The notes: generated by a model from the letters alone, not told the origin. Counted from the first letter of the stretch, positions 7,781-58,778 are shown. The stretch is 64,000 nucleotides of DNA from an uncultured Pseudomonadales bacterium (GCA_964412775.1 CAYPPX010000003.1:75467-139466), one strand, 5' to 3'. Numbers and translations: made by a program.

Positions 7781-8382
7781 TTTACTTCAAAAAACAACAG
7801 GTTTTTTTGTTTATTATCTTTTTTATTTTTTATAAATAATTCTTTTTTACCTTTATCCATCACCGGTACCTCAAAAACCACCTCTTTATCACTCCATTTT
7901 TTTATATTCATTTCTGCACCATCTAAATACACTTTTCCAGGCTCATGAGGCTCACCAAAGTTCTTACCAGTAATTCTCACTAAACTCCCCTGGATTCCCC
8001 AATCATTACTGAGTTTTTTGATTTTGGGGTATTGTTGTAAATCACTGTAAAAATGTGTGTATTGGTTATGAAAAAATAGAGTTATTAAGAATAACCCAAC
8101 AATAAAAAAATTAATTTTTGGCCATTTTATTAGCTGATTTTTAATACTAACAAGTGAAAATATAACTATTAGTAGTAAAAGATAAATAGTTGTGTATTTA
8201 TAATTTAAGCTATCATAAAGCCACCAATACTCAGTAGTTAAATACTGAAAAACATCAACCGTAACTAGAAAAATAGTTAAAATTATTAAACTTAGCAACA
8301 ACTCAGGTAGTAACTTAGACCAACTGAACTCAGTTGTTGTCTGTGGTTTCTTTGATTTCATAAAACTTGGGATTATAGGCAC
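7777..8382 (-). CDS. Small membrane protein (3-4 TM) with C-terminal IPT/TIG-like domain
   Basis: GSLVRITGKNFGEPHEPGKVYLDGAEMNIKKWSDKEVVFEVP matches the IPT/TIG consensus (G..I.G.NF....V.....A......S...I...VP). Confidence 0.5.
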   Translation of the reverse strand: MPIIPSFMKSKKPQTTTEFSWSKLLPELLLSLIILTIFLVTVDVFQYLTTEYWWLYDSLNYKYTTIYLLLLIVIFSLVSIKNQLIKWPKINFFIVGLFLITLFFHNQYTHFYSDLQQYPKIKKLSNDWGIQGSLVRITGKNFGEPHEPGKVYLDGAEMNIKKWSDKEVVFEVPVMDKGKKELFIKNKKDNKQKNLLFFEVK

Positions 8383-9250
8383 GAATAATTAGGTCCATAA
8401 TCAAACCACTAACAAAGATTTGAACACCAAATAACATCATAAACACTGCTACTAAGGGCCACATCCTTGTACCGATACCATGAAATAAAATAAATTTTTC
8501 AATCAGCATCCAAACAGCAATCAGGAAACCAACTCCAAAACTAAAGATACCTAGAGCCCCCAACATATGAAGTGGTCTAGCAGCAAACTTATGAAAAAAC
8601 CACAAAGTCAGCATATCCATGAAGCCTTTGATCGTTCTAGTCAGGTTGTATTTACTCACTCCAGAAAGTCTAGGTCTGTGTTTCACTGGCATCTCACCAA
8701 TCTTAAAACCACGCCACACCAATAGAGCTGGGATAAAACGATGCATTTCCCCTCTCAAAGTCATGCCTGTAAAACACTCTTTTTTGTAAACTCTCAGGGT
8801 ACAACCAGCATCATGAACATGATCTCGAATCAATATTTCTCTAAGGAATTTTGCTCCTCTAGAAATAAATCTCTTGCCCCAACTATCTTGTCTTTTTTGG
8901 CGCCAACCACAAACCACATCCAGCTTTTCTTGTTCCAATTTTGCAATCATCTCTGGGATACTAGCTGGATCATTTTGGAGATCTCCATCCAGAGATACCA
9001 CATACTTACCTTGGCTAGCTTTGAAGCCAGCATCTAGGGCCGCTGTTTGTCCAGAGTTTCTCCGTAGGGTAATTATTTTTAGGGGCTTGAGGGTTTTTAA
9101 AACTGCTGCTGTTCTATCTCTAGAGCCGTCATCAATAAAAATAATCTCGAACTCTTTTTTGAAAGTTTTGGCTACTTTAAGAATTTCTTCATGAAGTTTT
9201 TTGACATTGCCTTCTTCATTAAAAATCGGTACAACAAAGGAAATATACAT
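8330..9250 (-). CDS. Polyprenol-phosphate glycosyltransferase, GtrB/ArnC/DPM1-like GT2 with C-terminal TM helices
   Basis: ISFVVPIFNEEGNV...FIDDGSRDRTAAV...RNSGQTAALDAGF followed by 2 TM helices, the bactoprenol-P sugar transferase architecture. Confidence 0.7.
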   Translation of the reverse strand: MYISFVVPIFNEEGNVKKLHEEILKVAKTFKKEFEIIFIDDGSRDRTAAVLKTLKPLKIITLRRNSGQTAALDAGFKASQGKYVVSLDGDLQNDPASIPEMIAKLEQEKLDVVCGWRQKRQDSWGKRFISRGAKFLREILIRDHVHDAGCTLRVYKKECFTGMTLRGEMHRFIPALLVWRGFKIGEMPVKHRPRLSGVSKYNLTRTIKGFMDMLTLWFFHKFAARPLHMLGALGIFSFGVGFLIAVWMLIEKFILFHGIGTRMWPLVAVFMMLFGVQIFVSGLIMDLIIRAYNPKFYEIKETTDNN

Positions 9251-9295
9251 AGGTGTTACGATTGTAACCCAATTGCTTGTCTTGAGGAAGGGTAA

Positions 9296-10246
9296 TTAGG
9301 TTCTCTGAGCTTTGTACCAGGCTACAAACTTGGTCATACCCTCTTTAAAAGAGGTTTTTGGCTGATAACCCAGTAACTTTTGAGCTTTACTGATATCAGC
9401 ATAGGTTACTTCTACATCTCCAGGTTGCATGGGTAGTTGTTCAAGTTTCATGGTTAAACCAGTAATTTCTTCCAAGGTATGAATAAATTCATTGAGTGAA
9501 ACCGGGCTATTGTTACCCAAATTAATGACTTCAAACTGACTTTCAAGCTTCAGGCTGGCTATTACTCCACTAACAATATCATCGATATAGGTATAGTCAC
9601 GTTTAGTTTCACCATTGCCAAATTTTTTAATTGGTTTACCAGTTAAGATTGCCTCAGTAAATAAGTAAGGTGCCATATCTGGTCTTCCATTGGGCCCATA
9701 GACCGTAAAAAACCTCAGACAAGCTGTTTTAATACCGTATAAATGAGCATAAACATGACAATACATCTCAGCTGATTTTTTAGAAGCAGCGTAAGGGCTA
9801 ATTGGTTCGTTAACCGGATCTGTTTCAGTAAACGGTACCTTAGTTTGGTTACCATAAACTGATGAAGATGAAGCTAAAATAAACCTAGCTACAGCGTATT
9901 TTTTAGCTAAGTCTAGTAAATTTAAAGTACCTTTAGCATTAACTTCTTCATAAAGCACTGGCTCAGCAATCGATGGTCTGACTCCAGCTCTGCCAGCCAA
10001 ATTCATAATGGCATCAAATTTATTTTGCTGAAAAATTGGTTCTAGAGCAGTTAGATCTCTCAGATCGGCTTTCACAAAAGAAAAGTTGGGATGTTTTTCC
10101 AGTCTAGCTAGGTTTTCTTGTTTCCAGGATATATTGTAATAATCATTAATTTCATCCAGACCAATAACTTGGTGACCAGTTGCTAAAAGTCTTTCTGCAG
10201 TGTGTGAAGCGATAAAGCCAGCGACTCCAGTTAAAAGTATTGTCAT
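9296..10246 (-). CDS. NAD-dependent sugar epimerase, UDP-glucuronate 4-epimerase-like
   Basis: TGVAGFIASH Rossmann motif, GLDEINDYY motif typical of UDP-GlcA 4-epimerases, YxxxK catalytic pair. Confidence 0.55.
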   Translation of the reverse strand: MTILLTGVAGFIASHTAERLLATGHQVIGLDEINDYYNISWKQENLARLEKHPNFSFVKADLRDLTALEPIFQQNKFDAIMNLAGRAGVRPSIAEPVLYEEVNAKGTLNLLDLAKKYAVARFILASSSSVYGNQTKVPFTETDPVNEPISPYAASKKSAEMYCHVYAHLYGIKTACLRFFTVYGPNGRPDMAPYLFTEAILTGKPIKKFGNGETKRDYTYIDDIVSGVIASLKLESQFEVINLGNNSPVSLNEFIHTLEEITGLTMKLEQLPMQPGDVEVTYADISKAQKLLGYQPKTSFKEGMTKFVAWYKAQRT

Positions 10247-11178
10247 TTTTTATTTTCCTTATACCACTCAACTGTTTTTATCAAACCATCTTCAAAATTA
10301 ATTTTTGATTCAAACCCAAATTCTTTTTTAGCTCTAGATACATCTAGTTTCCTTCTTGGTTGTCCGTCAGGTTTGTCAGTATTAAAGACTACTTTACCTT
10401 TATAGCTGACTACTTTTTTGATTGTTTGTGCTAGTTCTCTAATCGAGATTTCAAAGCTAGAACCCAAATTTACTGGCTCAGCATTGTTGTATTTTTCTGT
10501 CGCCAAAACAATCGCTCTAGCAGCGTCTTCGACATATAAAAACTCTCGAGTTGGTTTACCGGTACCCCAGATTTCTACACTGGGATAGTTTTTATCTTTA
10601 GCTTCCACAAACTTTCTAATTAAAGCTGGAATGACATGAGATGATTTGGGATCAAAATTATCACCTGGGCCATAAAGATTAACTGGTAATAAGTAAATAG
10701 AGTTAAAGTTATACTGTTGTTTATATGCCTGAGATTGCACTAACAACATTTTTTTGGCTAAGCCATAAGGAGCATTGGTTTCTTCCGGATAGCCATTCCA
10801 TAAATTTTCTTCTTTAAATGGGACTGGCGTAAATTTTGGGTAGGCACAGATAGTACCAATGCCAACAAATTTTTTTACTTTCGCTTTTCTCGCTTCTTCC
10901 ATGAGATGAATACCCATCATCAGGTTGTCATAAAACAATGTTCCAGGGAATTCTTGGTTATAACCAATCCCACCGACATTAGCAGCCAGGTGAATCACAA
11001 TATCAACATTTTTGACTAATTTGGCACAGACTGATTTTTCTCTCAGATCATAGTCTTTTGATCTAGGAACAATGATTTTTTTAGGTTTTTTGGTTTCGAT
11101 TAACTTGACCAAGTGAGAGCCCAAAAAGCCACTGCCACCTGTTACCAAGATAGTTTTATTTTGCCAAAAATTTGTCAT
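10243..11178 (-). CDS. fcl: GDP-L-fucose synthase (GDP-4-keto-6-deoxymannose 3,5-epimerase/4-reductase)
   Basis: ILVTGGSGFLGSH...NLYGPGDNFD...HVIPALIRKF, a characteristic Fcl/WcaG signature. Confidence 0.75.
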   Translation of the reverse strand: MTNFWQNKTILVTGGSGFLGSHLVKLIETKKPKKIIVPRSKDYDLREKSVCAKLVKNVDIVIHLAANVGGIGYNQEFPGTLFYDNLMMGIHLMEEARKAKVKKFVGIGTICAYPKFTPVPFKEENLWNGYPEETNAPYGLAKKMLLVQSQAYKQQYNFNSIYLLPVNLYGPGDNFDPKSSHVIPALIRKFVEAKDKNYPSVEIWGTGKPTREFLYVEDAARAIVLATEKYNNAEPVNLGSSFEISIRELAQTIKKVVSYKGKVVFNTDKPDGQPRRKLDVSRAKKEFGFESKINFEDGLIKTVEWYKENKK

Positions 11179-11197
11179 ATTTATTTAATTTCCAAAT

Positions 11198-13078
11198 TTA
11201 TTTTATTACACTTAGTTTATTCAATCTTGTTTCTAAACCACCATCTCTTATCACCCATTTAATACAAAATTCACTTCGAGTTAATTTTTCTATAGCAAAA
11301 GTTGATCTTTGACTATTATAAACATAGCTATTAAGCTCACTACTAGCACAGAGCTCACTATTAAATATTACATAATAATTTCTACTATCAATAGGTGAAG
11401 CAATAAACTGAGGCAAAACTTGGGTTTTTAGATAAATTTCTTCATACCGATCACTGGCTGTTTTTTCTTTACTACACTCACTGAGGAGTTCTTCTTCCAC
11501 CACTAAGTAACCATCAATATTCTGTTCCAAAACACTACAATCACTCGTCCAAGAGAAGTTTTCAAAGTTGTAATTACTGTAGACACCTTGTTTAAATTCT
11601 GGCACTAACTCAGCTAGTTTTTCTGATTTTAGTTCATCTTGATAAAACAAATAGGCTCTAAAACCTGGATAAGGGTTTTTAGTTAAAACTGTCACCATTT
11701 TTTGATTTTCTTGAGCTAGGTTTAAGTATTTAGCCAGTAATCTTTCTTTAAAAAAGTAATTATCGGCAGAATAGACTGGGTAATTATTTTGAAAAATATA
11801 AAAAAAGTAACCAAAATTAATCAACAGACTCCCAACAGTTATTAATTTCAAAAATGAGCCAAGTAAACCCTGCAGGGAAAATAAGTGGTACCAACCAGTG
11901 GCGATAAAAATTGCTAATAAGGGGAAAATCAGACCAGCTCTCAAAGCTGTTGATGTCCCTTGGTGAAGTGCTGCTGGCAGTGGAGCAACTAATAGTAATG
12001 TTAATAGTAAATAAAAAGTATTTTTATGTTTTTGATGTAAAAACCAGCCACCAATAAAAATCAGTGGTAATTCAATCAAATAAGCATACCCAGTTTGAAA
12101 TAAAGAAAATAAAACTGTTGAATCAGTACCAGTAATAAATAAATTAGTGGGATTAAAAGTAGCCAGATATCTAATACCGATTTCTCTAGCTAACACGGTA
12201 TATTTATTGATTAATAAACTAGTCATTGGTGTCAAAAAGCCTAGTTTACGACTAGAGTTAACTAGTTCCGCCAAAAATTCTTGATCCAAAAAAATTAACT
12301 CGGCTTGACGATCACCATAGCCACTCATTGAAGTTAAAAACTTAATCACCAATAGAAGCATTAAGCCACCAAAGATTAAATATGGCTGGGTAAGTTTTAC
12401 CTTGGTTTTTTTATCGGCAAGCCACCATTGCCAAACGAATGGGATCACTACTAATAATGGCATAATTAATTTATAACCATGATAGGAGTAAAAACCGACA
12501 AAATATGCAAAAAATGAACCAATTGCCAGTAAAATAGCCTGAGAAGTTTTTTTCGTTTCAGCTAAACTTATTAACCAATAAATACCCAAAAGATAAAACA
12601 TTAAAGCATTGGGCGCTTCATAAGCGGTATGAGCAAACAAAATACTCCAAGGACTAAGTGAGAAAACCAAACTACTCAGTAAAGCTAAAGCCTTGTTCTT
12701 GCTGATTTTTTCAACTAATAAACCAATAATCAAAACTGTCAATGAACTAAAAAGCACCGATAGAATCCTGGCATTGAATAAATTCAAGGGCAAAAATTTG
12801 AAAACGAACGCTTGTAAAACTGGAAATAATTCAGAAGTTAAAGTTTCTGTAGCTATCGGTGACAATGAAGTTGGTTGCCAAGTCTGAGTCAAATCAGACC
12901 CAGTCAACGCAATCATTTTGCCATTGAGCACATAATCTAGTTCATCATGGGAAATCGCGACCGGATTGTTAGTTAAATTTAGTAGTCTGAGGCCAAAGGC
13001 AAAAATAATAATTAAGCTCAAAAACATCTTAAAAGACTTACCACTCAATTTTTCATCAAGTCGCACCAACTTTAACAT
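11198..13078 (-). CDS. GT-C fold membrane glycosyltransferase, PMT/ArnT (COG1807)-like
   Basis: About 12 TM helices, first-loop acidic motif (ISHDELDY), C-terminal ~200 aa soluble domain. Paralogous to the other GT-C ORFs in this window. Confidence 0.6.
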   Translation of the reverse strand: MLKLVRLDEKLSGKSFKMFLSLIIIFAFGLRLLNLTNNPVAISHDELDYVLNGKMIALTGSDLTQTWQPTSLSPIATETLTSELFPVLQAFVFKFLPLNLFNARILSVLFSSLTVLIIGLLVEKISKNKALALLSSLVFSLSPWSILFAHTAYEAPNALMFYLLGIYWLISLAETKKTSQAILLAIGSFFAYFVGFYSYHGYKLIMPLLVVIPFVWQWWLADKKTKVKLTQPYLIFGGLMLLLVIKFLTSMSGYGDRQAELIFLDQEFLAELVNSSRKLGFLTPMTSLLINKYTVLAREIGIRYLATFNPTNLFITGTDSTVLFSLFQTGYAYLIELPLIFIGGWFLHQKHKNTFYLLLTLLLVAPLPAALHQGTSTALRAGLIFPLLAIFIATGWYHLFSLQGLLGSFLKLITVGSLLINFGYFFYIFQNNYPVYSADNYFFKERLLAKYLNLAQENQKMVTVLTKNPYPGFRAYLFYQDELKSEKLAELVPEFKQGVYSNYNFENFSWTSDCSVLEQNIDGYLVVEEELLSECSKEKTASDRYEEIYLKTQVLPQFIASPIDSRNYYVIFNSELCASSELNSYVYNSQRSTFAIEKLTRSEFCIKWVIRDGGLETRLNKLSVIK

Positions 13079-13095
13079 TTATTAATTTCTATTTC

Positions 13096-14016
13096 TTAAT
13101 TTTTTGCTTTATACCACTCAGCTACTTTTTTAACGCCTTCTGCAAAACTCACCGTTGGCTCCCAACCGAGTTTTTCTTGAGCTTTTTTATAGCTCAAAGA
13201 ACTAGTTACTTGTTCACCTGGTCTGGCTGGACCATATTCTTTTTCAACTGATAGACCAAGTTCCTTGACCACAGCATCAAACACCTCATTAGTACTAATT
13301 TCCGTAGTAGTCCCAATGTTTAGTTCACCGACAAACTCAGTTTCCAAAGCCAATAAATTAGCTTTAACCACATCAGCCACATAAACATAATCACGAGTAT
13401 GAGTGCCATCGCCATTGATCACTGGCGTTTTACCAGCCATTAACATCTCGGAAAAAATCGCCACCACTCCAGATTCACCGTGAGCATTTTGACGTGGGCC
13501 ATAAACATTGGAGTATCTCAAGGAAACAAATGGAATACCATAAAGTTCATAGTAATAGTTCAAATATAGCTCTCCGGCTCTTTTGGAAATACCATAAGGA
13601 GATAAAGGCTGTTCTTTCATGGTTTCATCAAAAGGGGTTTGCTTATTGCCATACATCGCTCCACCAGTGGCAGCCATAATGATTTTTTTGACACCCACAT
13701 CTTTGGCCGCTTCCATAATGTTAAGCAGACCCAAGATGTTATTTTCGGCATCAAATTGAGGATTTTTGACTGAATAACCCACCTGAATATGAGCAGCATG
13801 ATGATTAATTACATCTGGTTTTTCCGATCTAACGATTTGTTGAATCTTGGCCATATCAGTAATGTCGGCTTTGATAAACTTAGCTTGATCATTCACGTAC
13901 TCAGTTTTGCCGGTAGATAGATTATCCACTACAACCACTTCATGACCAGCTGCCACATAAGCATCAACTACATGAGAGGCAATAAAGCCAGCTCCACCTG
14001 TCACTAAAATTTTCAT
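13096..14016 (-). CDS. NAD-dependent epimerase/dehydratase, GalE-like UDP-sugar 4-epimerase
   Basis: MKILVTGGAGFIASH, YxxxK, short-chain dehydrogenase/epimerase fold. Confidence 0.6.
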   Translation of the reverse strand: MKILVTGGAGFIASHVVDAYVAAGHEVVVVDNLSTGKTEYVNDQAKFIKADITDMAKIQQIVRSEKPDVINHHAAHIQVGYSVKNPQFDAENNILGLLNIMEAAKDVGVKKIIMAATGGAMYGNKQTPFDETMKEQPLSPYGISKRAGELYLNYYYELYGIPFVSLRYSNVYGPRQNAHGESGVVAIFSEMLMAGKTPVINGDGTHTRDYVYVADVVKANLLALETEFVGELNIGTTTEISTNEVFDAVVKELGLSVEKEYGPARPGEQVTSSLSYKKAQEKLGWEPTVSFAEGVKKVAEWYKAKN

Positions 14017-14041
14017 AAACTTCCTTTCATTTCTTATGTAC

Positions 14042-15214
14042 TCAAGCTACCCAATAGCCTTGAATAAACAGCAATGTGTTTATTATAAGCAACAATAGGC
14101 TCAGGGCTAGCAGAGAAAGTTTTTTAGCTTTATTTTCATTTATCCACTCGGCTAATAAATAGTAAATTGGCCAGGCTACCATAATATATCTAGGCATACT
14201 CGAAAATGTGCCAGTCAGAGTAGGCACAGTAATCACTGTTAAAGCAAAAAGCAAATAAGCAAGTCTAATTTTTTTCCAGTTAAATAACAGTATGGCAAAC
14301 GCACCAAGAGAAAAAACAAACTCTTGGAGATAGGCATAAAACTTCCAATCGATCGGTGTCGTGGTAAAAATTTTGAGGTAACGCCAAATGACTTGTGGTA
14401 GCAAAATTAAATCTTCTTGCCTACCAGCACCGAATTCACTTTGCACCTTAAAAAAGTATAGAGGGTCATGGAAAAATTGATTTAAATAAAGCATATAGGT
14501 CAACAAGCCCAAAGTAGAGCTAGAAATAGCTACTACTTCACGCCAGTTAGTTTTTAGTTCTTTAACTAAATTTTGCCGATTTAGTTGGAGGTTTTTACTT
14601 TGCCACCATTCAATTAGTAGAGCTGGCCAAATAGCGATCCCCACCACTCTTGTTGCTGAAGCTAATGCTCCAAATATCCCAGCCAACCACCAATTATTTT
14701 TTTTCGCAAAAAGGAAACTGGTTAAAATTAAACCTAAAAATAAGCCCTCGTTATATAGTGCCGCCAAAAATAAACTATTAGGAAACACTAATAATAAGGT
14801 AATTGTTAACCAGCCAATTTTGGTGGACTTTTTTAGCATGACTGTTACAAAATAAAAAAATAGTAATACTAATAAATAGGTCGTAAAAAATTGCAGTAAT
14901 AAGGTCATCAAGAAAAAATACTGCCCAAATATGGCTTTTAGCAAGCTCAATATCAAGGGAAAAACTGGAAAAAACGCCTGAATTAGGCCAGTTCCCAGAT
15001 AACCTTTGTCAGCAATGGTCAAATAATGGACACCATCAAAATTCGCCCATGAATATAACCAGCGAGCTACATTTAACTTTGCCAAAATTTCACTGCTATA
15101 CGGGAAACTAGGATCATAGTTCAAAAAATGATCAGCAAAAAAACCAACTAAAAATAAAATCAAGCGCCAGCTGATGACTAAGTAAAGTAGTTTTTTCCAA
15201 GGTAAATTTTTCAC
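14042..15214 (-). CDS. Polytopic membrane protein, mannosyltransferase-like (PIG-V/GT-C-like motif)
   Basis: W-x-x-FDGVHYLTIADKGY motif resembling the W..D..Y..IA..GY box of PIG-V-type mannosyltransferases. About 9 TM helices. Confidence 0.4.
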   Translation of the reverse strand: MKNLPWKKLLYLVISWRLILFLVGFFADHFLNYDPSFPYSSEILAKLNVARWLYSWANFDGVHYLTIADKGYLGTGLIQAFFPVFPLILSLLKAIFGQYFFLMTLLLQFFTTYLLVLLFFYFVTVMLKKSTKIGWLTITLLLVFPNSLFLAALYNEGLFLGLILTSFLFAKKNNWWLAGIFGALASATRVVGIAIWPALLIEWWQSKNLQLNRQNLVKELKTNWREVVAISSSTLGLLTYMLYLNQFFHDPLYFFKVQSEFGAGRQEDLILLPQVIWRYLKIFTTTPIDWKFYAYLQEFVFSLGAFAILLFNWKKIRLAYLLFALTVITVPTLTGTFSSMPRYIMVAWPIYYLLAEWINENKAKKLSLLALSLLLLIINTLLFIQGYWVA

Positions 15215-49137: not shown

Positions 49138-49197
49138 AATGCAATTATATAATGATATACTTGCCAAGTAAGATATAAATTTTTTAGGAAAAATATC

Positions 49198-50499: not shown

Positions 50500-50512
50500 A
50501 AAGGATTTAAAA

Positions 50513-51460
50513 GTGACAGAAAACATTTTAATTACTGGTGGCACGGGTTTTGTTGGAACTCATTTAGTCAAAGAACTTATTAATCAAGGCACTGACCCCA
50601 AACAAATTCACGTTACGACTTTGAAAAAAAGCGCTCCTCATTATTTGGGTAATTTAATTCCAAACTCTAATTTTCATGAAGCTGATCTAACTAAATCTGA
50701 TGTCGTAATGAATTTATTCAACTCACTTCGTCCTGCATTTATTTATAACTTGGCTGGGTTTTCTTCTCAAGGAGCTAGTTTAGAAAAAAAAAGTTTAACT
50801 TTATCAGTCAACACCATGATTCAACTTAATGCTTTAGAAGCTATGGTTGCCTTTACCCCGAACTCAAGACTCCTTTCAATTGGCAGTGGCACTGAATACG
50901 CTCCATCAAACAAGCCACTCAAAGAAACTGACCCACTTGGCCCGAGTAATCCTTATGCTATTTCTAAAGTTACTCAAGATATGTTGGCTGGTAGTTATGC
51001 TGCTCAAGGTTTAGACATTGTCAGAGTTAGACCGTTTAACCATATTGGAGAATACCAAGAAAGAGGTTTTGTTGTGGCCGATTTTGCCTACCAAATTACT
51101 CAAGAAATAGAAAAAGGTCTAAAAGATAACATCAACGTTGGTAACCTTGATGTTAGAAGAGATTTCACTGATGTTATTGATATTGTTAAAGGTTATATAT
51201 TGTTAATGAAGGTAGCTAAATCTGGAGAAATCTACAATCTAGGTAGCGGTAAAGATATCTCAATTTTAGAACTTTTAAAAAAACTTCAAGACCTTTCAAC
51301 GGTAGAGTTTCAAATTAATATTGATGATAGTAAAAAACGAAAAAATGAAAATGATCTAAGTGTGGCTGATATTTCCAAAATTAAACAACTAGGCTGGGAA
51401 CCAACAATCCCACTCGACATCACCCTAGAAAGAATAGTAAAGTGGTGGAGAGAAAAATAG
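50513..51460 (+). CDS. NAD-dependent epimerase/dehydratase, GDP-4-keto-6-deoxy-D-mannose reductase (Rmd)-like
   Basis: ILITGGTGFVGTHL, YAISK (YxxxK), RPFNHIGEYQ. Sits immediately upstream of gmd. Confidence 0.5.
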   Translation: MTENILITGGTGFVGTHLVKELINQGTDPKQIHVTTLKKSAPHYLGNLIPNSNFHEADLTKSDVVMNLFNSLRPAFIYNLAGFSSQGASLEKKSLTLSVNTMIQLNALEAMVAFTPNSRLLSIGSGTEYAPSNKPLKETDPLGPSNPYAISKVTQDMLAGSYAAQGLDIVRVRPFNHIGEYQERGFVVADFAYQITQEIEKGLKDNINVGNLDVRRDFTDVIDIVKGYILLMKVAKSGEIYNLGSGKDISILELLKKLQDLSTVEFQINIDDSKKRKNENDLSVADISKIKQLGWEPTIPLDITLERIVKWWREK

Positions 51461-51472
51461 AGAGGTATTTTT

Positions 51473-52450
51473 ATGAAAAAAGCTTTTATTACTGGTATTA
51501 CTGGCCAAGATGGCTCTTACTTGGCTGAGTTATTACTCGAAAAAGGTTATCAAGTCTACGGTTTAACTAGAAGAACTAGTACCCAAACTTTTTCTAGAAT
51601 TAAACACATTGTTCATGACCCTAATCTCAAATTGATTTCTGGTGATTTAGTTGACCAACACTCACTTACTTTTGCTTTAAAAGAAATCCAACCAGATGAA
51701 ATTTATAACTTAGCTGCTCAATCATTTGTTCAGGCTTCTTGGGAACAACCGGTTTTAACTGGTGAATTTACTGGTCTGGGTGTCACCAGAATGTTAGAAG
51801 CCATGAGACTTGCCGCACCAAATGCCAAGTTCTACCAAGCTAGCTCGAGTGAAATGTTTGGTAAAGTTAGAGAAACACCCCAAACAGAAATGACTCCGTT
51901 CTATCCAAGATCACCATATGGTGTCGCTAAAGTTTATGGCCATTGGATCACCGTTAATTATCGTGAATCTTATGACATGTTTGCTGTTTCTGGTATTTTA
52001 TTTAATCACGAGTCACCCCGCAGAGGTTTAGAATTTGTTACTAGAAAAATTGCTAACGGTGTTGCCAGGGTTAAACTTGGCAAACAACCACATATTGAGC
52101 TTGGTAATTTAGATGCCAAACGCGACTGGGGGTATGCTAAGGATTATGTTAAGGCAATGTGGTTGATGCTCCAACAAACTGAGCCAGATGACTTCGTAGT
52201 CGCTACTGGAGAAACCCACTCTGTTAGAGAGTTTTTACAACTGGCTTGTAAAGCTGCAAATTTACCAGATTGGGAAGCTGTTTATAAACATAACCCACTT
52301 TATGATCGGCCAGCTGAAGTTGATTTGCTGATTGGTGACCCAAGCAAAGCCAAAGAAAAACTTGGTTGGGAGCCATCAATTGATTTCGAAGAACTAGTAA
52401 AAATTATGGTTCAATCTGAACTTGAGGAAGAAAGTAAAATCAAAGACTAA
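51473..52450 (+). CDS. gmd: GDP-mannose 4,6-dehydratase
   Basis: [48 protein letters not shown], a textbook Gmd signature. Confidence 0.85.
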
Positions 52451-52452
52451 CA

Positions 52453-53619
52453 ATGACTCAAAAAAAAGCTTTCGTGATTATCCCAACTTACAATGAACGG
52501 GATAATATCGAAAAAACCCTGACCCATGTTTTTGAGAACCTAGCTAAAGTGAAAGATTGGCACACTGGTGTTTTAGTAGTTGATGATACTTCTCCAGATA
52601 AAACCTATGAGTTGGTCAAAAATCTTCAGCAAAAATTTAAAAACCTAGAACTTTTGATCAATAAAAATAAAGCAGGCCTGGGAGGTGCTTATCTGAAAGG
52701 CATGGACTATGCTTTTAACCAGCTCAAAGCTGATTTAGTTTTTGAGTTTGATGCTGACCTATCCCACGATCCAGAAAAATTGCCGTTATTTTTCAACCAA
52801 ATTGACGCTGGTAAAGATATGGTGCTTGGCTCTAGATATATTCCAGGTGGTAGTATTCCAGCTGATTGGGGTATCCACCGCAAATTTTTGAGTGTTGTCG
52901 GCAACATCGTAATCATGATTATCCTAACTAATTTTTCAATCAGAGACTGGACTACTGGTTATAGAGCGATTACTAAAAAAGTTTGGCAATCAGTCCATGA
53001 GGAGCTAAATAGTGAAAGATTCTCTGGTTATACTTTTCAAATTGGCTTCCTTCACAAAGCTGTGCAAAAAGGGTTTAAAATTGGAGAAGTGCCTTTTCAT
53101 TTTAAGGACAGAACTTTTGGTAAAAGTAAAATAGGACCTGAGTACATCAAAAATACTCTTGAATACATTATGAAAGTACGAATCAAAGATTTATTAAAAA
53201 ATAGAATTTTTAGATTTGCTATAGTTGGTGGAATTGGCGCTTTAACCCAATTAACTACTTTGCAACTTTGGCGAGCCATATTTCCTTATCAGCTAGCCTT
53301 TTTCTTGGCTATTGAATGTGCCGTCTTAATGAACTTTACCCTTAGTAATTTGTGGACTTTTGCTGATAGAAAACTCAAACCCACTCAATATCCTGCTAAG
53401 TTTATTCAATTTAACTTGGCCTCATCTGGCTCAATTATTATTCAGCAATTAGTGGCTTTTTTGGGTGAGAATTTTGTCGGTTTATTTGCTCTATTTACTC
53501 TCCCAATCATCAAGCTGACTATTGATACCGGCATGATGTATGCTGTTGCTGGTATTTTGATCGGCATGTTCTGGAATTTTTTTGCCTACAATACTTTTAT
53601 TTGGAAAAAGAAAAAATAA
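52453..53619 (+). CDS. Polyprenol-phosphate mannose/hexose synthase (DPM1/Ppm1-like GT2) fused to C-terminal GtrA-like 4-TM domain
   Basis: AFVIIPTYNERDNI...VVDDTSPDKT...EFDADLSHDP. C-terminal FRFAIVGGIGALTQLTTLQLW is a GtrA-family signature. Confidence 0.7.
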   Translation: MTQKKAFVIIPTYNERDNIEKTLTHVFENLAKVKDWHTGVLVVDDTSPDKTYELVKNLQQKFKNLELLINKNKAGLGGAYLKGMDYAFNQLKADLVFEFDADLSHDPEKLPLFFNQIDAGKDMVLGSRYIPGGSIPADWGIHRKFLSVVGNIVIMIILTNFSIRDWTTGYRAITKKVWQSVHEELNSERFSGYTFQIGFLHKAVQKGFKIGEVPFHFKDRTFGKSKIGPEYIKNTLEYIMKVRIKDLLKNRIFRFAIVGGIGALTQLTTLQLWRAIFPYQLAFFLAIECAVLMNFTLSNLWTFADRKLKPTQYPAKFIQFNLASSGSIIIQQLVAFLGENFVGLFALFTLPIIKLTIDTGMMYAVAGILIGMFWNFFAYNTFIWKKKK

Positions 53620-53625
53620 ATAAAT

Positions 53626-55200
53626 ATGAGCTTATTACCTGCCAATCCCCTCAAAAAGGTATTGTTAGTTGTAATCTTAGCAATTGCTCTATTTTTTCGC
53701 TTCTATAACTTGGAAGGTTCATTACAATTTCAAGGTGACCAGGGAAGAGATGCCATTATTGTTGCTGACATTTTTCGCCTAAAAGACCTAGTTTTTATCG
53801 GTCCGGTTACTAGTGTCGGAAATATGTATTTGGGACCTTTCTACTATTATTTTATGTTGCCATTTTTATGGCTCAGTTATCCAAGTCCAATGGGTCCAGT
53901 TTATGCTGTAGCAATTCTCGGCTTTATTACTGTTTACCTAGTTTACTATTTGGGTAAAAAACTAATTGGTGAAAATGGAGCAATTATTGCTAGCTTTTTT
54001 TATGCTCTTTCAGCAGTAGTCAGCCAAAACACAAGATTTAGTTGGAATCCTAATCCTGCACCATTATTGTCGCTACTAATGCTTTACTTTTCTTACACAG
54101 CTTGGAAAAAAAATCCCAAACACTGGCTATTGGTAGCTGGGTGTTTTAGCTTATTAATCCAGCTCCATTATCTTACTCTCCTCACTTTACCAGCTGCTGG
54201 TTTAATCTGGTTATTAGCTTATAGAGATCAATGGCAAAACAGTAAAAATGATCACAAAAAAAACCTCTGGCAAAAACTATCACCACTGTTGACCCCTAGT
54301 TTCATGGCTATTGGTATCTTTCTATTATCACTAACACCATTAGTCCTTTTTGACCTAAAACATAATGGTAACAATTTAATGGCTTTCCAAAACCTAGTTG
54401 GTAACGAAGACAACTTTAAGTATGCCCCTCAAGAATCAATTGTGACTAAGTTTTTTTCAACGATTAAAGAAAATGAGGGGAGAAGCTTACATATTTTATT
54501 TGAAACTATGATTGGAAAAAATCGAACTCTCAATATTACTCTCCTCTACTTTACTCTCTTTTTTCTTACTGGATTAGTAATCTGGAAAAAAAAGCAAAAA
54601 CAAAATCTAGCTCCACTAACTGTAATCTTGATTTACCTTGTAGTTGGCATTGTCGGTACTTCACTTTATGAACACACTATTTTTGACCACTATATTTCTT
54701 ACCTTTTCCCGATAACTGCTTTAATTTATGGTTTAGTTTTTAGTAACCTTAGACCAAAATTTTTGGGAATAATTGGTTTAATTGCCTTTACTAGCTATTT
54801 TTTCCCTTATAACTGGCAGAAAATGCCAATTAAAACCATGGGTTGGACAGTTAATGATATTAAACTTACCAGTGAAGAAATTCTTAAACATCTTCAACCA
54901 GGAGAAAAATATAACTTAGTTTTACTCTCAGAAAGTAGGGATATTGATGGTCAAAACTATCGCTATTTCTTAACCACCGGTCATACTCGTCCAGTATTTA
55001 CTGAAGAACGAGGTAATGTTGATACCTTAGTAATCATTAATGAAGAAAAAAAACTTGTTGATGTTGTCAGCAATTCACCAATTTATGAGATTGCAACCTT
55101 CCCTAATAAACACATTGCTGAATTTTTTACTATTGCTAACGGACCAGAAATAACTATTCTAAGGAGAACTACACAACCACCTCCAGAAGGTTTAGAATAG
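53626..55200 (+). CDS. GT-C fold glycosyltransferase, PMT/ArnT-like
   Basis: Polytopic, acidic first-loop motif (QGDQGRDAI), C-terminal soluble domain. Confidence 0.55.
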   Translation: MSLLPANPLKKVLLVVILAIALFFRFYNLEGSLQFQGDQGRDAIIVADIFRLKDLVFIGPVTSVGNMYLGPFYYYFMLPFLWLSYPSPMGPVYAVAILGFITVYLVYYLGKKLIGENGAIIASFFYALSAVVSQNTRFSWNPNPAPLLSLLMLYFSYTAWKKNPKHWLLVAGCFSLLIQLHYLTLLTLPAAGLIWLLAYRDQWQNSKNDHKKNLWQKLSPLLTPSFMAIGIFLLSLTPLVLFDLKHNGNNLMAFQNLVGNEDNFKYAPQESIVTKFFSTIKENEGRSLHILFETMIGKNRTLNITLLYFTLFFLTGLVIWKKKQKQNLAPLTVILIYLVVGIVGTSLYEHTIFDHYISYLFPITALIYGLVFSNLRPKFLGIIGLIAFTSYFFPYNWQKMPIKTMGWTVNDIKLTSEEILKHLQPGEKYNLVLLSESRDIDGQNYRYFLTTGHTRPVFTEERGNVDTLVIINEEKKLVDVVSNSPIYEIATFPNKHIAEFFTIANGPEITILRRTTQPPPEGLE

Positions 55201-55210
55201 AAAAATATTT

Positions 55211-55963
55211 ATGAATAAGCCATATTTATCAGTCGTCATTCCCTCATATAATGAAAAAAGTAACCTTGAAAGAAATGTTTTAGATGAAGTCTTGGATTTC
55301 CTCAATAATCAAGATTTTGTTTGGGAGATTATTTTGAGTGATGATGGTAGTACTGATGGCACAGTTGATGAATTAAAAAATTTTGCTAAAAAATCAACAC
55401 AAATTAAAGTTTTAGCTAATAAACATGCTGGCAAAGGACCTACCGTAAAAGCTGGAATGTTAGCAGCCACTGGTGAATGGAGATTATTTACTGACTTTGA
55501 CCAATCTACTCCGCTAACTGAAGTAACCAAACTCCTTAAATACACAAATCAGTATCAAGTCATCTTTGGTTCAAGAGAAATTGCTGGAGCTAGAAGAGAT
55601 AAAGAACCTTTTTATCGTCACTTAATGGGCAGAGGCTTTAACTTATTAGTACAAATCTTGGCAGTTCGTGGAGTTAAAGATACTCAATGTGGCTTCAAAA
55701 TGTTCTCGGCAGAAACAACCGAAAAACTATTTAATAACCTTTATGTTTACGGTGGAAATGAAATTAGAACCGATGCTTTTACTGGCGCTTTTGACGTCGA
55801 ATTACTATTCTTGGCCCGAAAATTTAAAATTCCCTACAAAGAAGTCCCAATTCTTTGGAAACATCATAAAACCGACCGAGTCAGCCCAATTAAAGACTCA
55901 TTAAGAATGTTGAGAGACATCCTAAAAATTAGGCTTGCTTATCTAACTGGTAAGTATCACTAG
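55211..55963 (+). CDS. Soluble GT2, dolichyl/polyprenyl-phosphate hexosyltransferase-like
   Basis: LSVVIPSYNEKSNL...ILSDDGSTDGT...TDFDQSTP, an Alg5/DPM1-like core without a TM region. Confidence 0.6.
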   Translation: MNKPYLSVVIPSYNEKSNLERNVLDEVLDFLNNQDFVWEIILSDDGSTDGTVDELKNFAKKSTQIKVLANKHAGKGPTVKAGMLAATGEWRLFTDFDQSTPLTEVTKLLKYTNQYQVIFGSREIAGARRDKEPFYRHLMGRGFNLLVQILAVRGVKDTQCGFKMFSAETTEKLFNNLYVYGGNEIRTDAFTGAFDVELLFLARKFKIPYKEVPILWKHHKTDRVSPIKDSLRMLRDILKIRLAYLTGKYH

Positions 55964-55967
55964 CTAA

Positions 55968-57203
55968 ATGAAAAAAAACAACTCTTTGTCCAACTTTCCT
56001 TTTGTTTTGCTGTTTTTGGTAAGTGCTCTTTATACTATCTTTTCCTACTCTTTAACTGACCCAAATTTAATTATTAGCTCTTGGAAACCATACTGGTCGT
56101 TTCAGCTATGGATGTGGCAAACCTTTTTTAATAATGCTCAACTACTCAGTTACTCCTTCTTAGCTATTATTAGTTTATTTTTTACAATCTATTTAATTGG
56201 TCTCAATAAAATTAATGGCGAAATCAGTAAAGATTTTATTTTTAAAGTTATTTTGTCGGTTTCACCGTTGTTTTTTAGCTACAATGCCTTGTCTCACGAT
56301 GTTTTTAATTATATGTTTAATGCCAAAATGGTCACCTTATTTCAAGCTGATCCACATATCAAGACTGCTCTAGATTTTTACTACGACGACTGGACAAGAT
56401 TTATGCATAACACCCATACACCAGCCCCATATGGTTATGGTTGGACTATTTTTTCTGTTTTTCCTTATTTACTCGGTTTCCATAAGTTTCTACCAACCTG
56501 GATTATCTTCAAATTACTAGCTTGGTTGAGCTATTATTTACTCTTTCTAGCAACTAAAAGTCTAGTTTTAAAAATCACTAATAAACAACTTACTAACCGT
56601 ACTGCATGGTTAATTTTCGCTAATCCATTAATAATTATTGAAATCCTTTCTAATCTACATAATGATTTATGGATGCTAGTACCAGCAGTGGTTTCATTAA
56701 ACTTAATTATTAAAAAACCAAAAAAATTTCTGGTTTCAACAATTATTCTTTCACTTTTGTTACTAGCCTTTTCGATTACTACCAAGTTAGCCACAATTGT
56801 CTTGGTTCCTTTTTGGTTTTATTGGTTTATTAAATTATTTTTGAACCAGCATAAATTATTTAAAATTTTTGAACCACTCGAAAAGTACCTACCTTTATTA
56901 ATCTCAATTGGCTTGTTTTTACCCCTACTCACTAGTAGATCACAACAATTTCTTCCTTGGTACCTGACTTGGTCAATGATTTGGTTAGTAGTGATTAAAA
57001 GATCTGATTGGAAACATTGGCTTATAGCTTTAAGTTTTACTTCGCTACTTAGATATCTACCTTGGCTACAAACAGGCGGTTTTGAGGGCAGTGTGATTCA
57101 AAACCAAAAACTAATTACTTTTGGTGGAGGCTTAATTATCTTTTTTATTATTCAGCTTGGTTCTTTTTTTAAAACAAAAACTAGCACAAAAGCTGCTCAC
57201 TAG
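55968..57203 (+). CDS. Polytopic membrane protein, possible GT-C-like mannosyltransferase
   Basis: About 10 TM helices. DFYYDDWTRFMH...PAPYGYGW loop motif loosely resembling that of 14042..15214. Confidence 0.35.
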   Translation: MKKNNSLSNFPFVLLFLVSALYTIFSYSLTDPNLIISSWKPYWSFQLWMWQTFFNNAQLLSYSFLAIISLFFTIYLIGLNKINGEISKDFIFKVILSVSPLFFSYNALSHDVFNYMFNAKMVTLFQADPHIKTALDFYYDDWTRFMHNTHTPAPYGYGWTIFSVFPYLLGFHKFLPTWIIFKLLAWLSYYLLFLATKSLVLKITNKQLTNRTAWLIFANPLIIIEILSNLHNDLWMLVPAVVSLNLIIKKPKKFLVSTIILSLLLLAFSITTKLATIVLVPFWFYWFIKLFLNQHKLFKIFEPLEKYLPLLISIGLFLPLLTSRSQQFLPWYLTWSMIWLVVIKRSDWKHWLIALSFTSLLRYLPWLQTGGFEGSVIQNQKLITFGGGLIIFFIIQLGSFFKTKTSTKAAH

Positions 57204-57212
57204 TTACAATAA

Positions 57213-58778
57213 TTGATGATGGAGAAAAAAATAAATAATAGCTTCTGGAAAATCATGATTTTCTTGGTCGTTGGGATTTATTTTTTAACTCACATAACTG
57301 CTTTAACTTTATTACCAGTTTTTGCTGATGAAGCTATTTATATTCGTTGGGCGCAACTGATTATTGATGATTGGCAAAGATACTTATTTTTCTCAATGAA
57401 TGATGGTAAAACTCCCCTGTTTATTTGGTTACTAAATATCGCTTTAAAACTTTGGGATGACCCACTTTACGCCGGTAGAATGGTCTCTGTCCTAGCTGGC
57501 TTAGCTCAATTATTTGTCACTTTAAAATTAGTCAAAAAACTTGGTGGTGGTTTGGTCGCAAAAACTTTAGCTATTTTTTCCGTAATGTTTTTACCATATT
57601 GGTACTTTCATCATCGGATGGCTTTAATGGATAGTTTTTTAACCTTACTTTTATCTACTTCACTTTATTATTTATTAACCAGCTTTACCAGTAAAAAACC
57701 GAAAGATTTACTCTTAGCTGGTGTGTTTTTAGGCCTATCATTATGGACCAAAATTCCCGCTATCTTATTTTTCCCAACAATTATTTTGGCAACTTTGTTA
57801 CCCAACAAAAAAACTCCTTTAGCTAAAAAATTACAACTGAGTGGCTTAGTCATTATTTTAGGAATTAGCTTGTTTGCTACATTAAAACTTAGCCCAACTT
57901 TCCCTCAGCTTTTTAGCAGAGGTGGTGATTTTCTCTACTCAATTCCAGAGCTATTAGAAAAAGGCATTTTTACAATATTTTGGGCTAATAGCCAAAGAAT
58001 TTTTCAAGGTCTATTTAGTTATCTATCATGGCCAATCATGCTATTGCCATTTTTTGGCTTATTCCAAGAAAAACTTAGAAAAACTCATACAGTACTAATC
58101 CTTAGCTTCTTAGGTTTTACCTTGCCAATTTTATTACTGGGTAAAACTATCTACCCCAGATATATTTTACCCAGTATTCTGCCTTTAACCCTATCTGCTG
58201 TCTTATCACTGGAATACATCATTCAGAAAGCTCAAGCAAACATTAACAAACCACTGACTTTTTTCTTACAAACTACTGCCATTATCGTTATCCTCACCAG
58301 TATCGTTCAAATGGCAGTTACCTTTACCTTAATCTCTTGGAAAAACCCTAATTATTTGCCACTTGTACCAATCGATACTTACCAATATCTAGCAGATTGG
58401 GGAGCTGGTAATGGCATTAAAGAAAGCACAGAACTAATGCTTGCCGAAATAAACAAAGGCCACTCTGTAGCTGTTGCTACTGAAGGGCACTTCGGCACTT
58501 TACCTGATGGTGTTTTAATGTATTTGCACAACAAAAATGTCAATAATCTCTTGGTTGAAGGTATTGGACAACCAATCTACAAACTAGAAACAGAGTTTCT
58601 GAACAAATCAAATAATTATGAACAAACCTGGTTATTAGTTAATTCACATCGCCAAGAACTCAAGCTTAAAGAAAACCACCCAAACCTGCTAAAAGCAGAG
58701 TTTTGTAGAATCAAAAATGCACCTTGTTTAGAGTTGTGGGATATTACCACCATCAAAAACGATTTACCAAATAAATAA
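57213..58778 (+). CDS. GT-C fold glycosyltransferase, ArnT/PMT-like
   Basis: LLPVFADEAIYIRWAQ DE motif, polytopic, C-terminal soluble domain. Confidence 0.6.
   Translation: MMMEKKINNSFWKIMIFLVVGIYFLTHITALTLLPVFADEAIYIRWAQLIIDDWQRYLFFSMNDGKTPLFIWLLNIALKLWDDPLYAGRMVSVLAGLAQLFVTLKLVKKLGGGLVAKTLAIFSVMFLPYWYFHHRMALMDSFLTLLLSTSLYYLLTSFTSKKPKDLLLAGVFLGLSLWTKIPAILFFPTIILATLLPNKKTPLAKKLQLSGLVIILGISLFATLKLSPTFPQLFSRGGDFLYSIPELLEKGIFTIFWANSQRIFQGLFSYLSWPIMLLPFFGLFQEKLRKTHTVLILSFLGFTLPILLLGKTIYPRYILPSILPLTLSAVLSLEYIIQKAQANINKPLTFFLQTTAIIVILTSIVQMAVTFTLISWKNPNYLPLVPIDTYQYLADWGAGNGIKESTELMLAEINKGHSVAVATEGHFGTLPDGVLMYLHNKNVNNLLVEGIGQPIYKLETEFLNKSNNYEQTWLLVNSHRQELKLKENHPNLLKAEFCRIKNAPCLELWDITTIKNDLPNK

Follow-up and report, generated by a model that had tools for sequence, protein, structure and literature searches.

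Relation to described systems

Three-component systems of Gram-positive wall polymers combine a CsbB/GtrB-type GT-A enzyme, a GtrA or Wzx flippase, and a GT-C enzyme such as YfhO, GtlB, GacL or CsdB (PMC8035078; PMC11127046). Like these multi-component transmembrane systems, the locus described here encodes GT-C enzymes alongside a GT2 polyprenol-P-sugar synthase and a flippase, is tied to rhamnose and sugar-nucleotide genes and an LCP ligase, and has GT-C proteins with an acidic motif in a predicted extracellular loop. However, characterised multi-component systems contain one to three GT-C enzymes per cluster, whereas this locus contains 16 from at least five families, none of which belongs to the YfhO or GtrC family, and its only GtrA domain is fused to a synthase.

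Serial external GT-C enzymes served by few polyprenol-P-sugar donors are likewise a feature of arabinogalactan (AG) and LM/LAM assembly in mycobacteria and corynebacteria (Ppm1, MptA/B, PimE, EmbA-C, AftA-D, Lcp1). The locus shares with that pathway a DPMS-type synthase and an LCP protein of the kind that attaches polymer to peptidoglycan, and it has a candidate MptA/B-family member. Its GT-C enzymes match Emb, Aft and PimE in structure, at sequence identities of 9-15% to the solved enzymes. Mycobacterial GT-C genes, however, are scattered over a 4-Mb genome, whereas those found here are packed into approximately 58 kb of a CPR genome, and neither Emb/Aft-type arabinosyltransferase families nor DPA pathway genes were detected here. 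The locus also differs from ArnT (GT83) and Pmt (GT39) systems in having no sequence-level match to their structures, no ArnA/B/D and no PMT_4TMC domain; an ArnC-like gene (8330) is present. Its left end (1-8349) resembles serotype-variable O-antigen and capsule cassettes in its GC content below that of the genome, in its Wzx, glycosyltransferase (GT) and methyltransferase genes, and in the non-homologous cassette that occupies the same junction in a closely related strain, but it carries a GT-C gene instead of a Wzy polymerase and is joined to a much larger conserved core.

Organisation of the locus

The window is the whole stretch of DNA analysed (64,000 nucleotides, numbered from its first letter), and its host is a tiny-genome bacterium of the CPR "Pacebacteria". 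The locus spans approximately 58 kb, with its leftmost gene at position 89 or further left and its right end at 58778; a first-pass annotation had placed it at 8330-58778, and the left edge has to be moved outward. All ORFs listed in that annotation are present at their coordinates, the "start" of a minus-strand gene being its lower coordinate. The locus encodes 16 GT-C glycosyltransferases embedded in the membrane and 14 cytoplasmic ones, together with flippases, a wall ligase and synthases for lipid-sugar donors. The window probably holds a supercluster for cell-envelope glycopolymer biosynthesis that is conserved in the lineage of this CPR "Pacebacteria" bacterium and covers at least positions 89-58778.

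89-3636, minus: cassette part 1, with GT2 (89-874), GT4 (871-1980), weak GT2 (1973-2899) and SAM methyltransferase (2896-3636) (Pfam)
3642-5783, minus: Wzx-type flippase (Polysacc_synt) with a GT2 domain fused at its C terminus (Pfam; about 13 hydrophobic segments)
5785-7780, minus: PMT_2 GT-C in two overlapping frames, 6467-7780 and 5785-6528 (PMT_2 30.3 bits)
7777-8382, minus: small membrane protein with IPT/TIG domain at the variable-cassette boundary (Pfam)
8330-9250, minus: ArnC/GtrB-type polyprenol-phosphate glycosyltransferase, GT2 with two C-terminal TM helices
9296-11178, minus: GalE-like SDR epimerase (9296-10246) and GDP-L-fucose-synthase-like SDR (10243-11178) (NCBIfam, both below equivalog cut-offs)
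11198-13078, minus: family A GT-C of 626 aa with a long C-terminal domain (phmmer E 1e-11 to 1e-23 to the remaining A members)
13096-14016, minus: SDR sugar-nucleotide epimerase/dehydratase
14042-15214, minus: Gpi18/PIG-V-like GT-C (homologues with PF04188, PF13231 or PF26314)
15211-16872, minus: family B GT-C, PTPS_related (PF10131 45.6 bits; invariant H-D after TM1)
16869-18703, minus: GT4 (16869-17936) and GT2 (17912-18703) (Pfam)
18682-21959, minus: two family A GT-C, 18682-20283 and 20280-21959 (PMT_2 36.4 and 35.7 bits, alignment)
26687-29975, minus: two family A GT-C, 26687-28336 and 28350-29975
29939-33713, minus: cytoplasmic block of GT2, GT4, GT2 and GT2 (Pfam; collinear in related loci L087 and L007)
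33692-35392, minus: family A GT-C (phmmer E 1e-51 to 26687; PMT_2 22.7 bits, below gathering score)
35393-36298, minus: GT2 (Pfam)
36657-37547, plus: surface protein with N-terminal TM, Cys-rich region, APTT repeats, LPETG and hydrophobic tail (sequence)
37555-38655, plus: short (366 aa) PMT-clan GT-C (D64 invariant, EHPPLGKY motif)
38636-40351, plus: family B GT-C, PTPS_related (PF10131 56.5 bits)
40312-41658, minus: PMT_2 GT-C, 448 aa (PMT_2 29.6 bits; A-D-E after TM1)
41655-43148, minus: Wzx-type flippase (Polysacc_synt_3 151 bits)
43141-45012, minus: family B GT-C (phmmer E 1e-19 to 1e-36 against 38636 and 15211)
44981-46138, plus: LytR-CpsA-Psr (LCP) glycopolymer-to-peptidoglycan ligase (PF03816 108 bits)
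46589-48487, plus: RmlB (46589-47602) and RmlD-like reductase (47615-48487) (NCBIfam)
49198-52450, plus: UDP-glucose 6-dehydrogenase (49198), SDR (50513) and GDP-mannose 4,6-dehydratase (51473) (NCBIfam)
52453-53619, plus: DPMS-type polyprenol-phosphate-sugar synthase in which GT2 is joined to a GtrA/DPMS TM domain (Pfam)
53626-55200, plus: PMT_2 GT-C (43.9 bits)
55211-55963, plus: soluble GT2 nearest the catalytic domains of DPMS/ArnC/GtrB, a candidate for the third lipid-sugar synthase
55968-57203, plus: candidate MptA/B-family GT-C (PF26314 on an 89%-identical homologue; S-H-D motif)
57213-58778, plus: PMT_2/PMT GT-C (PMT_2 51.7 bits, PMT 28.2 bits; A-D-E after TM1)

GT-C glycosyltransferases

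All 16 GT-C candidates were accepted as polytopic in the GT-C sense (at least eight TM helices) on a crude hydropathy count of 6-13 segments. The AF2 models are all-helical bundles in which fold searches recovered the GT-C fold, and profile and fold searches alike returned GT-C enzymes only, setting aside an identity as transporters. Structural matches of the models include Pmt4, Pmt1/2, ArnT, ALG12, STT3, Emb, Aft and PimE; sequence searches against solved structures gave no match for any GT-C gene, and none reached a curated NCBIfam equivalog. PMT_2 passes its Pfam gathering score in 6467, 18682, 20280, 28350, 40312, 53626 and 57213 and falls below it in 33692 and 43141. PMT (PF02366) passes in 57213 only (28.2 vs 22.7 bits), where PMT_2 scores higher, and PMT_4TMC, the domain of true GT39 Pmt enzymes, is absent from all ORFs of the window (Pfam). 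Membership of GT39 was rejected on these two results, and that of GT83 because ArnT gave no NCBIfam or PDB sequence match and ArnA/B/D are missing from the window.

The GT-C genes sort into at least five sequence families, not into the single set of paralogs first proposed. Within family A, 11198 and 26687 have no Pfam match, yet are clearly homologous to 18682, 20280, 28350 and 33692 (phmmer E 1e-11 to 1e-52); 11198 has the motif H-D-E after TM1. The three family B genes (15211, 38636 and 43141), previously described as YfhO-like giants, match PTPS_related (PF10131) rather than YfhO (PF09586), and since their products are only 553-623 aa long they are not giants. ORF 14042 itself has no Pfam match; PF04188 occurs on about one-fifth of its homologues among the matches listed, and JGI names these homologues Gpi18-like. 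The AF2 model of 14042 (pLDDT 92.7) has a GT-C fold and best matches PIG-U, with further matches to Pmt4, STT3, ArnT, PIG-M and PimE. A 98%-identical homologue (P0361) shows that ORF 37516 truly begins at 37555; 13/50 members of its family match PMT_2, and hhalign relates it to family A with 95% probability. ORF 55968 has no match in local Pfam, and PF26314 is precomputed on 119/120 of its homologues, including the 89%-identical P0121.

The acidic residue expected in the first loop is invariant in every family examined. After TM1, E36 is invariant and E35 at least 90% conserved in family A (52 sequences), the H-D pair and D40 are invariant in family B, and D64 and D60 are invariant in the 37555 and 14042 families, respectively (50-52 homologues for E36, D64 and D60). 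Singletons carry ADE, GDQGRD or SHD after TM1. The K/R-rich N-termini suggest that this first acidic loop faces outward, and co-location with ArnC/GtrB/DPMS-type synthases suggests polyprenol-(P or PP)-linked sugars as putative donors.

Predicted donor supply, export and attachment

Lipid-carrier-dependent extracytoplasmic glycosylation, as originally proposed, is the natural reading because polyprenol-P-sugar synthases and flippases are present. Of the three synthases named in the first-pass annotation, two are supported along their full length: residues 3-293 of 8330, which has two TM segments by hydropathy, align with full-length ArnC (E 1.9e-38) and GtrB (E 1.8e-27) in a PDB sequence search, and residues 4-363 of 52453 match P. 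furiosus DPMS (5mlz), including the TM domain (E 1.3e-39). The third, 55211, is soluble and matches catalytic domains only, that of DPMS being closest. Only three candidate lipid-sugar synthases accompany the 16 GT-C enzymes, and the sole counterpart of a GtrA-type flippase is the TM domain that forms part of 52453; both observations count against our main reading.

Among the sugar-nucleotide genes, Gmd (51473) passes its NCBIfam cut-off, RmlB does so clearly (485 bits vs 365) and Ugd (49198) passes a subfamily model, whereas the Fcl-like (10243) and RmlD-like (47615) matches lie below their cut-offs and an NCBIfam search found no RmlA or RmlC within the window. Pfam bore out both predicted Wzx flippases (3642 and 41655) and the LCP ligase (44981), in which PF03816 covers residues 120-286 behind one TM segment at 33-65; LCP genes lie within the 10-kb flanks of only 5/24 related loci. 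Neither a priming phosphoglycosyltransferase (WecA/MraY-type or Bac_transf) nor a Wzy polymerase was found within the window (Pfam). These absences and the LCP count weigh against our main reading, as do the negative equivalog and solved-structure searches with the GT-C genes.

Conservation and the variable left end

The locus core is collinear in relatives, with one-to-one orthologues at 66-97% protein identity. Each paralog has an orthologue 67-70% or 81-97% identical, as against 22-37% between paralogs, indicating old duplications kept under selection. The right-hand module (52453-58778) is strictly collinear in relatives, and related metagenomic loci pack as many as 10 GT-C genes into 21 kb. 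Metagenomic loci also repeat, at 52-54% identity, a sub-module of a 37555-like GT-C, a B-type GT-C, Wzx, a second B-type GT-C, LCP and RmlB. The locus is thus not organism-specific, contrary to what had been supposed; only its low-GC left end (1-8349) is strain-variable. Genes at 89-3636 have a GC content of 24-29% and no counterpart in relatives, nucleotide identity to the related locus L081 ends at 8349, and in an 88%-identical relative the cassette is replaced at that junction by another one of low GC. Both frames at 5785-7780 are collinear with a single 695-aa PMT_2 protein of L081.

Alternative explanations

The PMT_2-type enzymes could instead act mainly in Pmt-like O-glycosylation of secreted proteins, lipoproteins and proteins anchored by sortase, among them the PT-rich product of 36657. 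This was the substrate model favoured in the first-pass annotation, and we consider it unlikely. PMT_2 and PMT models match several genes, the best structural matches include Pmt4 and Pmt1/2, and 36657 directly precedes the short PMT-like gene 37555. The features that had suggested protein substrates are also present, namely APTT repeats and an LPETG sorting signal in the Pro/Thr-rich 36657 surface protein, and a lipobox and PT-rich linker in the 24047 lipoprotein. However, the Pfam evidence against GT39 applies here as well, ArnT, ALG12 and STT3 are equally good structural matches, 24047 is missing at that site in GCA_049322655.1 (67% relative), and PT-rich or LPXTG ORFs occur in only 3/24 loci around 37555 homologues. 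The LCP ligase and Wzx flippases indicate a wall polysaccharide rather than Pmt protein substrates, and together with the 14 cytoplasmic GTs suit polysaccharide better. Dedicated Pmt-type protein O-mannosylation is thus weakly supported; judging from its sequence, the 36657 product may be a glycosylation substrate, though it is not a conserved locus member.

It is rather improbable that the product is a membrane-anchored, LM/LAM-like lipoglycan built from polyprenol-P-mannose by the right-hand module and not linked to peptidoglycan. The strict collinearity of that module and its gene order, with the DPMS-type synthase right after Gmd and then PMT_2, GT2, candidate MptA/B-family GT-C and PMT_2 genes, are in keeping with such a product, but Pfam revealed neither PimA/PimB-type genes nor any related to phosphatidylinositol in the window, and the LCP gene lies upstream in the same transcription direction. 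A lipoglycan may hold for this one module only and would be compatible with the supercluster reading. It is very improbable that the GT-C count overstates function because many of the copies are duplicates in decay or without catalytic activity: 6467 is frameshift-split and 37555 unusually short, but all others are intact with the acidic motif, and the gap between orthologue and paralog identities is a signature of long-term purifying selection.

Proposed pathway

Within the framework of multi-component transmembrane glycosylation of wall polymers (PMC8035078), the product is best read as a glycopolymer that is linked to peptidoglycan and that GT-C enzymes elaborate on the outer side of the membrane. 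The analysis establishes gene identities, synteny and orthology, GT-C folds and conserved acidic motifs; the donors, the acceptors, the final polymer and the step order given below are inferred. Gmd, the Fcl-like enzyme, RmlB, the RmlD-like enzyme, Ugd and the epimerases would provide activated sugars, from which the fourteen cytoplasmic GT2/GT4 enzymes may assemble an oligosaccharide on a polyprenol carrier for export by the two Wzx flippases. The three ArnC/GtrB/DPMS-type GT2 enzymes would place single sugars on polyprenol phosphate, and 52453, which adjoins Gmd, most likely makes polyprenol-P-mannose. On the outer face, the 16 individually conserved GT-C enzymes would draw on these lipid-linked sugars to lengthen and branch the polymer before the LCP enzyme joins it to peptidoglycan, and the low-GC left cassette, with its own Wzx, GT-C, GTs and methyltransferase, may add strain-variable decoration. 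By analogy, this assembly logic would be similar to that of mycobacterial AG/LAM. Collectively, the locus appears to equip its host with a complex cell-surface sugar polymer that is built largely outside the membrane.

GT-C inventory of the glycan locus

Pfam scans, which covered 50 of the 52 window ORFs of at least 150 aa, show that almost all of positions 89-58778 encodes glycan biosynthesis, with 30 glycosyltransferase genes among roughly 58 in the locus. The GT-C superfamily contributes 16 genes (eleven PMT_2-type, three PTPS_related, one Gpi18-like and one MptA/B-like), a density of 16 per 58 kb. All ORFs flagged in the first-pass annotation, named here by their lower coordinate, are present at the positions given there and are polytopic. 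Its count of at least 12 GT-C paralogs is exceeded, but the genes do not form a single paralog set: they comprise two true paralog groups plus separately placed genes. The first group (family A: 11198, 18682, 20280, 26687, 28350 and 33692) is linked by all-against-all phmmer at E 1e-11 to 1e-52, with 22-32% identity in the alignment, and the second (family B: 15211, 38636 and 43141) at E 1e-19 to 1e-36.

PMT_2 was matched above its gathering score by 6467, 18682, 20280, 28350, 40312, 53626 and 57213, of which 6467, 40312, 53626 and 57213 are distant from one another, and below it by 33692 and 43141. The family B genes had been described as YfhO-like giants, a label wrong in both words; they are PTPS_related, a profile that 15211 and 38636 match and that 43141 matches weakly. 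Pfam returned no match for 11198, 14042, 26687, 37516 and 55968. The closest representative of 37516, 98% identical, begins at residue 14 of the ORF, placing the gene start at 37555, as first annotated. In its family, 13 of 50 members match PMT_2 and 9 of 50 match PMT, and hhalign connects it with family A (95% probability, E 3.9e-8). For 55968, PF26314 (MptA_B_family) is found on 119 of the 120 homologues listed, one of them 89% identical. ORF 14042 has over 2000 homologues, most of which bear a Pacebacteria label; PF04188 (PIG-V), PF13231 or PF26314 is found on some of these homologues, for which the JGI name is Gpi18-like mannosyltransferase. One gene is interrupted:

5785-7780, minus strand: split PMT_2 GT-C gene (ORFs 6467-7780 and 5785-6528, in different frames, with a 62-nt overlap)

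Its two ORFs together are collinear with one 695-aa PMT_2 protein of the close relative L081, indicating a single split gene; the interruption is a frameshift, due either to pseudogene formation or to an error in sequencing AT-rich DNA.

Fold and motif evidence

No NCBIfam family scored above cut-off for any GT-C gene, and by these models none belongs to a characterised equivalog. When families A and B (as profiles) and the single proteins 40312, 53626 and 57213 were searched against PDB sequences, the result was no match, or noise such as IL-6 and NLRP1; two Pfam-negative members were therefore modelled. Since hhalign found no relation between the 14042 family and family A (5% probability), a fold search was needed to place 14042; its predicted structure (pLDDT 92.7) matches PIG-U, Pmt4, STT3, PglB, ALG3, ArnT, PIG-M, ALG6 and PimE. 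MFS, POT and GLUT structures appeared only at Foldseek probability ≤0.15, and a transporter identity for these ORFs was rejected. Family B aligns with family A (hhalign probability 88.7%, E 2.6e-6), a profile match that relates the two.

Acidic residues occur directly after TM1: E36 is invariant and E35 present in at least 90% of 52 family A sequences, D40 is invariant in family B, D64 in the 37555 family (50 members) and D60 in the 14042 family (52 members), and the singleton GT-C proteins carry ADE, GDQGRD and SHD motifs. Thus, profile matches, and the fold matches of the modelled members, fall on GT-C enzymes rather than unrelated transporter families, and the expected first-loop acidic motif is present, with residues invariant within families. 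Within family A, mean identity is 19% in the C-terminal soluble domains versus 28% in the TM cores, a pattern that would fit shared donor chemistry with different acceptors.

Accessory genes and a proposed assembly route

Candidate lipid-sugar donor synthases include 8330, which aligns full length to ArnC (E 1.9e-38) and to GtrB, and 52453, which aligns full length, TM domain included, to Pyrococcus dolichol-P-mannose synthase (E 1.3e-39) and carries a GtrA/DPMS TM domain in Pfam; 55211 is a soluble GT2 nearest to ArnC/GtrB/DPMS catalytic domains. In addition, the locus encodes two Wzx-type flippases (3642, with a fused GT2 domain, and 41655), an LCP ligase (44981, by Pfam), and a cytoplasmic set of 11 GT2 domains (one of them that fused to Wzx) and 3 GT4 genes. 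Among sugar-nucleotide genes, Gmd (51473) and RmlB (46589) exceed curated NCBIfam cut-offs and Ugd (49198) that of a subfamily model; Fcl-like 10243 and RmlD-like 47615 score under the cut-offs, and three further SDRs received no specific assignment. NCBIfam detected neither RmlA nor RmlC in the window, and no priming phosphoglycosyltransferase or Wzy-type polymerase was seen there.

This gene set makes it fairly likely that the product is a wall-linked glycopolymer, made by a GT2/GT4, Wzx, GT-C and LCP route. As we infer the donors, acceptors and step order of this pathway, GT2/GT4 enzymes would begin the glycopolymer in the cytoplasm and Wzx would flip it; GT-C enzymes would extend and branch it outside the membrane, using polyprenol-P-sugars from 8330, 52453 and possibly 55211, and LCP would ligate it to peptidoglycan. 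The right-hand module (Gmd, DPMS-like, PMT_2, GT2, MptA/B, PMT_2) would most plausibly use polyprenol-P-mannose. The closest analogies are mycobacterial AG/LAM assembly and the multi-component transmembrane glycosylation systems of Gram-positive bacteria (PMC8035078; PMC11127046).

Alternatively, though less probably, the GT-C enzymes may glycosylate proteins, for which the Pro/Thr-rich surface protein 36657 and the lipoprotein 24047 had been proposed as Pmt-type substrates. In the 36657 product, a Cys-rich region and APTT repeats occur along with an N-terminal TM and an LPETG sorting signal; a hydrophobic tail follows this signal, but the usual positively charged C-terminal tail is missing. 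Given the LPETG and hydrophobic tail at its end, the protein is probably a sortase substrate, a feature not mentioned in the first-pass annotation. The 24047 product combines a lipobox with a PT-rich linker. However, Pfam detected the PMT_4TMC domain, the domain of true Pmt enzymes, in none of the genes scanned, and nothing found ties either product to O-glycosylation. A PT-rich or LPXTG ORF occurs in only 3 of 24 related loci, and the relative GCA_049322655.1 encodes a 683-aa polytopic protein at the position matching 36657. Relatives at ≥90% identity have the 24047 gene, but GCA_049322655.1, a 67% relative, lacks it in the interval from ArgRS to the 26687 orthologue, so that it may be a recent acquisition. 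Three secreted or lipoprotein genes are much richer in GC (24047-25111, 51%; 36657-37547, 47%; 60513-61646, 45.5%) than their neighbours at 30-37%, and PT/A-rich repeats account for only part of this. Between 24047 and 26687 lie four small acidic ORFs (25347-26567, minus strand; 97, 87, 138 and 52 aa), of which only the 97-aa one is kept in GCA_049322655.1 (62% identity).

Beyond the wall-glycopolymer route, a broader and rather speculative scenario places the formation of most main envelope-glycan bonds outside the membrane, where at least 16 specialised GT-C enzymes would be supplied by only two or three lipid-sugar donors. This would be a "mycobacterial-style" assembly line evolved independently in an ultra-small episymbiont. 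The expanded six-member family A would polymerise or branch the glycan independently of Wzy, or else form a multi-paralog protein O-glycosylation system resembling the eukaryotic PMT families.

Conservation and strain variation

The nearest sequences to the ArgRS embedded in the locus (≤54% identity) come from Microgenomates-group CPR MAGs, and cluster-mates at ≥90% identity are named Candidatus Pacebacteria, now under phylum Minisyncoccota. ArgRS (21984-23819, minus strand) and TrmD (48484-49167, minus strand) are housekeeping genes inside the glycan locus, at the same positions in 66-97% relatives. In an ArgRS-anchored scan, most CPR genomes had no GT-C gene beside ArgRS, the Pacebacteria UBA6180 locus being the only exception, so the scan yielded taxonomy and little synteny.

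The locus was initially read as likely organism-specific, yet collinear relatives exist: positions 8349-21218 share 88% DNA identity with a Logan contig (L081) and 45968-60280 share 86% with a JGI contig, while GCA_049322655.1 has GT-C proteins 66-70% identical and keeps two long gene orders (GT2, A, GT2, GT2, GT4, GT2, A, A, ArgRS, A, A, GT2, GT4, B, Gpi18, epimerase; and LCP, RmlB, RmlD, TrmD, Ugd, SDR, Gmd, DPMS, PMT_2, GT2, MptA/B, PMT_2, HK/RR). Overall, the original observation is confirmed and its interpretation survives in part, as to GT-C enzymes over transporters, but not as to organism-specificity or YfhO-likeness. Each GT-C paralog has its own orthologue at 67-97% identity versus 22-37% between paralogs, indicating that the duplications are old and every copy was retained. 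The more distant UBA6180 has the same core with one family A gene. Around 37555 homologues, 24 metagenomic loci (~21 kb) hold a median of 4 and a maximum of 10 GT-C ORFs, so that 16 per 58 kb is typical of the lineage; Wzx occurs in 13, lipid-sugar synthases in 9 and LCP in 5 of the 24. Two loci around distant homologues (L108 and L098), with 10 and 9 GT-C-like ORFs per 21 kb, are denser than the window. The window's density is high by the standard of characterised systems, whose clusters contain one to three GT-C genes (PMC8035078).

GC content is about 35% in the window and 18-29% in its first 8.3 kb (1-8349). DNA identity to L081 ends exactly at 8349, past which the two strains carry different low-GC cassettes of analogous content (PMT_2 GT-C, Wzx, GTs), the window's own with an additional methyltransferase gene. 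This suggests that 1-8349 is a strain-variable glycan cassette and recombination hotspot, the same pattern as in serotype-variable O-antigen/capsule regions.

At the right-hand end, Rfam and tRNA scans gave a single find:

60209-60280: tRNA-Gln

Directly after the last GT-C gene and before this tRNA lies a convergent gene pair (58822-60132), one gene encoding a 217-aa HATPase_c-only protein (a truncated or minimal histidine kinase), the other an OmpR-type response regulator. The pair is kept in relatives, which makes it a possible regulator of the glycan locus. A promoter/terminator scan of 35.8-47 kb showed no enrichment over shuffles.

Implications

CPR bacteria, whose genomes measure about 1 Mb, are believed to spend their lives attached to host cells. 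With a locus filling most of 64 kb, this bacterium invests very heavily in surface sugar chemistry, and the strain-variable cassette of the locus suggests diversifying selection, e.g. through phage or host recognition. A literature search yielded no paper describing GT-C-dense loci in CPR, and a GT-C-dominated envelope glycan supercluster appears to be a general trait of Pacebacteria-like lineages, undescribed in the searchable literature. The GT-C subfamilies here, without a characterised member, would open a way into the envelope biochemistry of uncultivated bacteria and supply glycoengineering with new enzymes.
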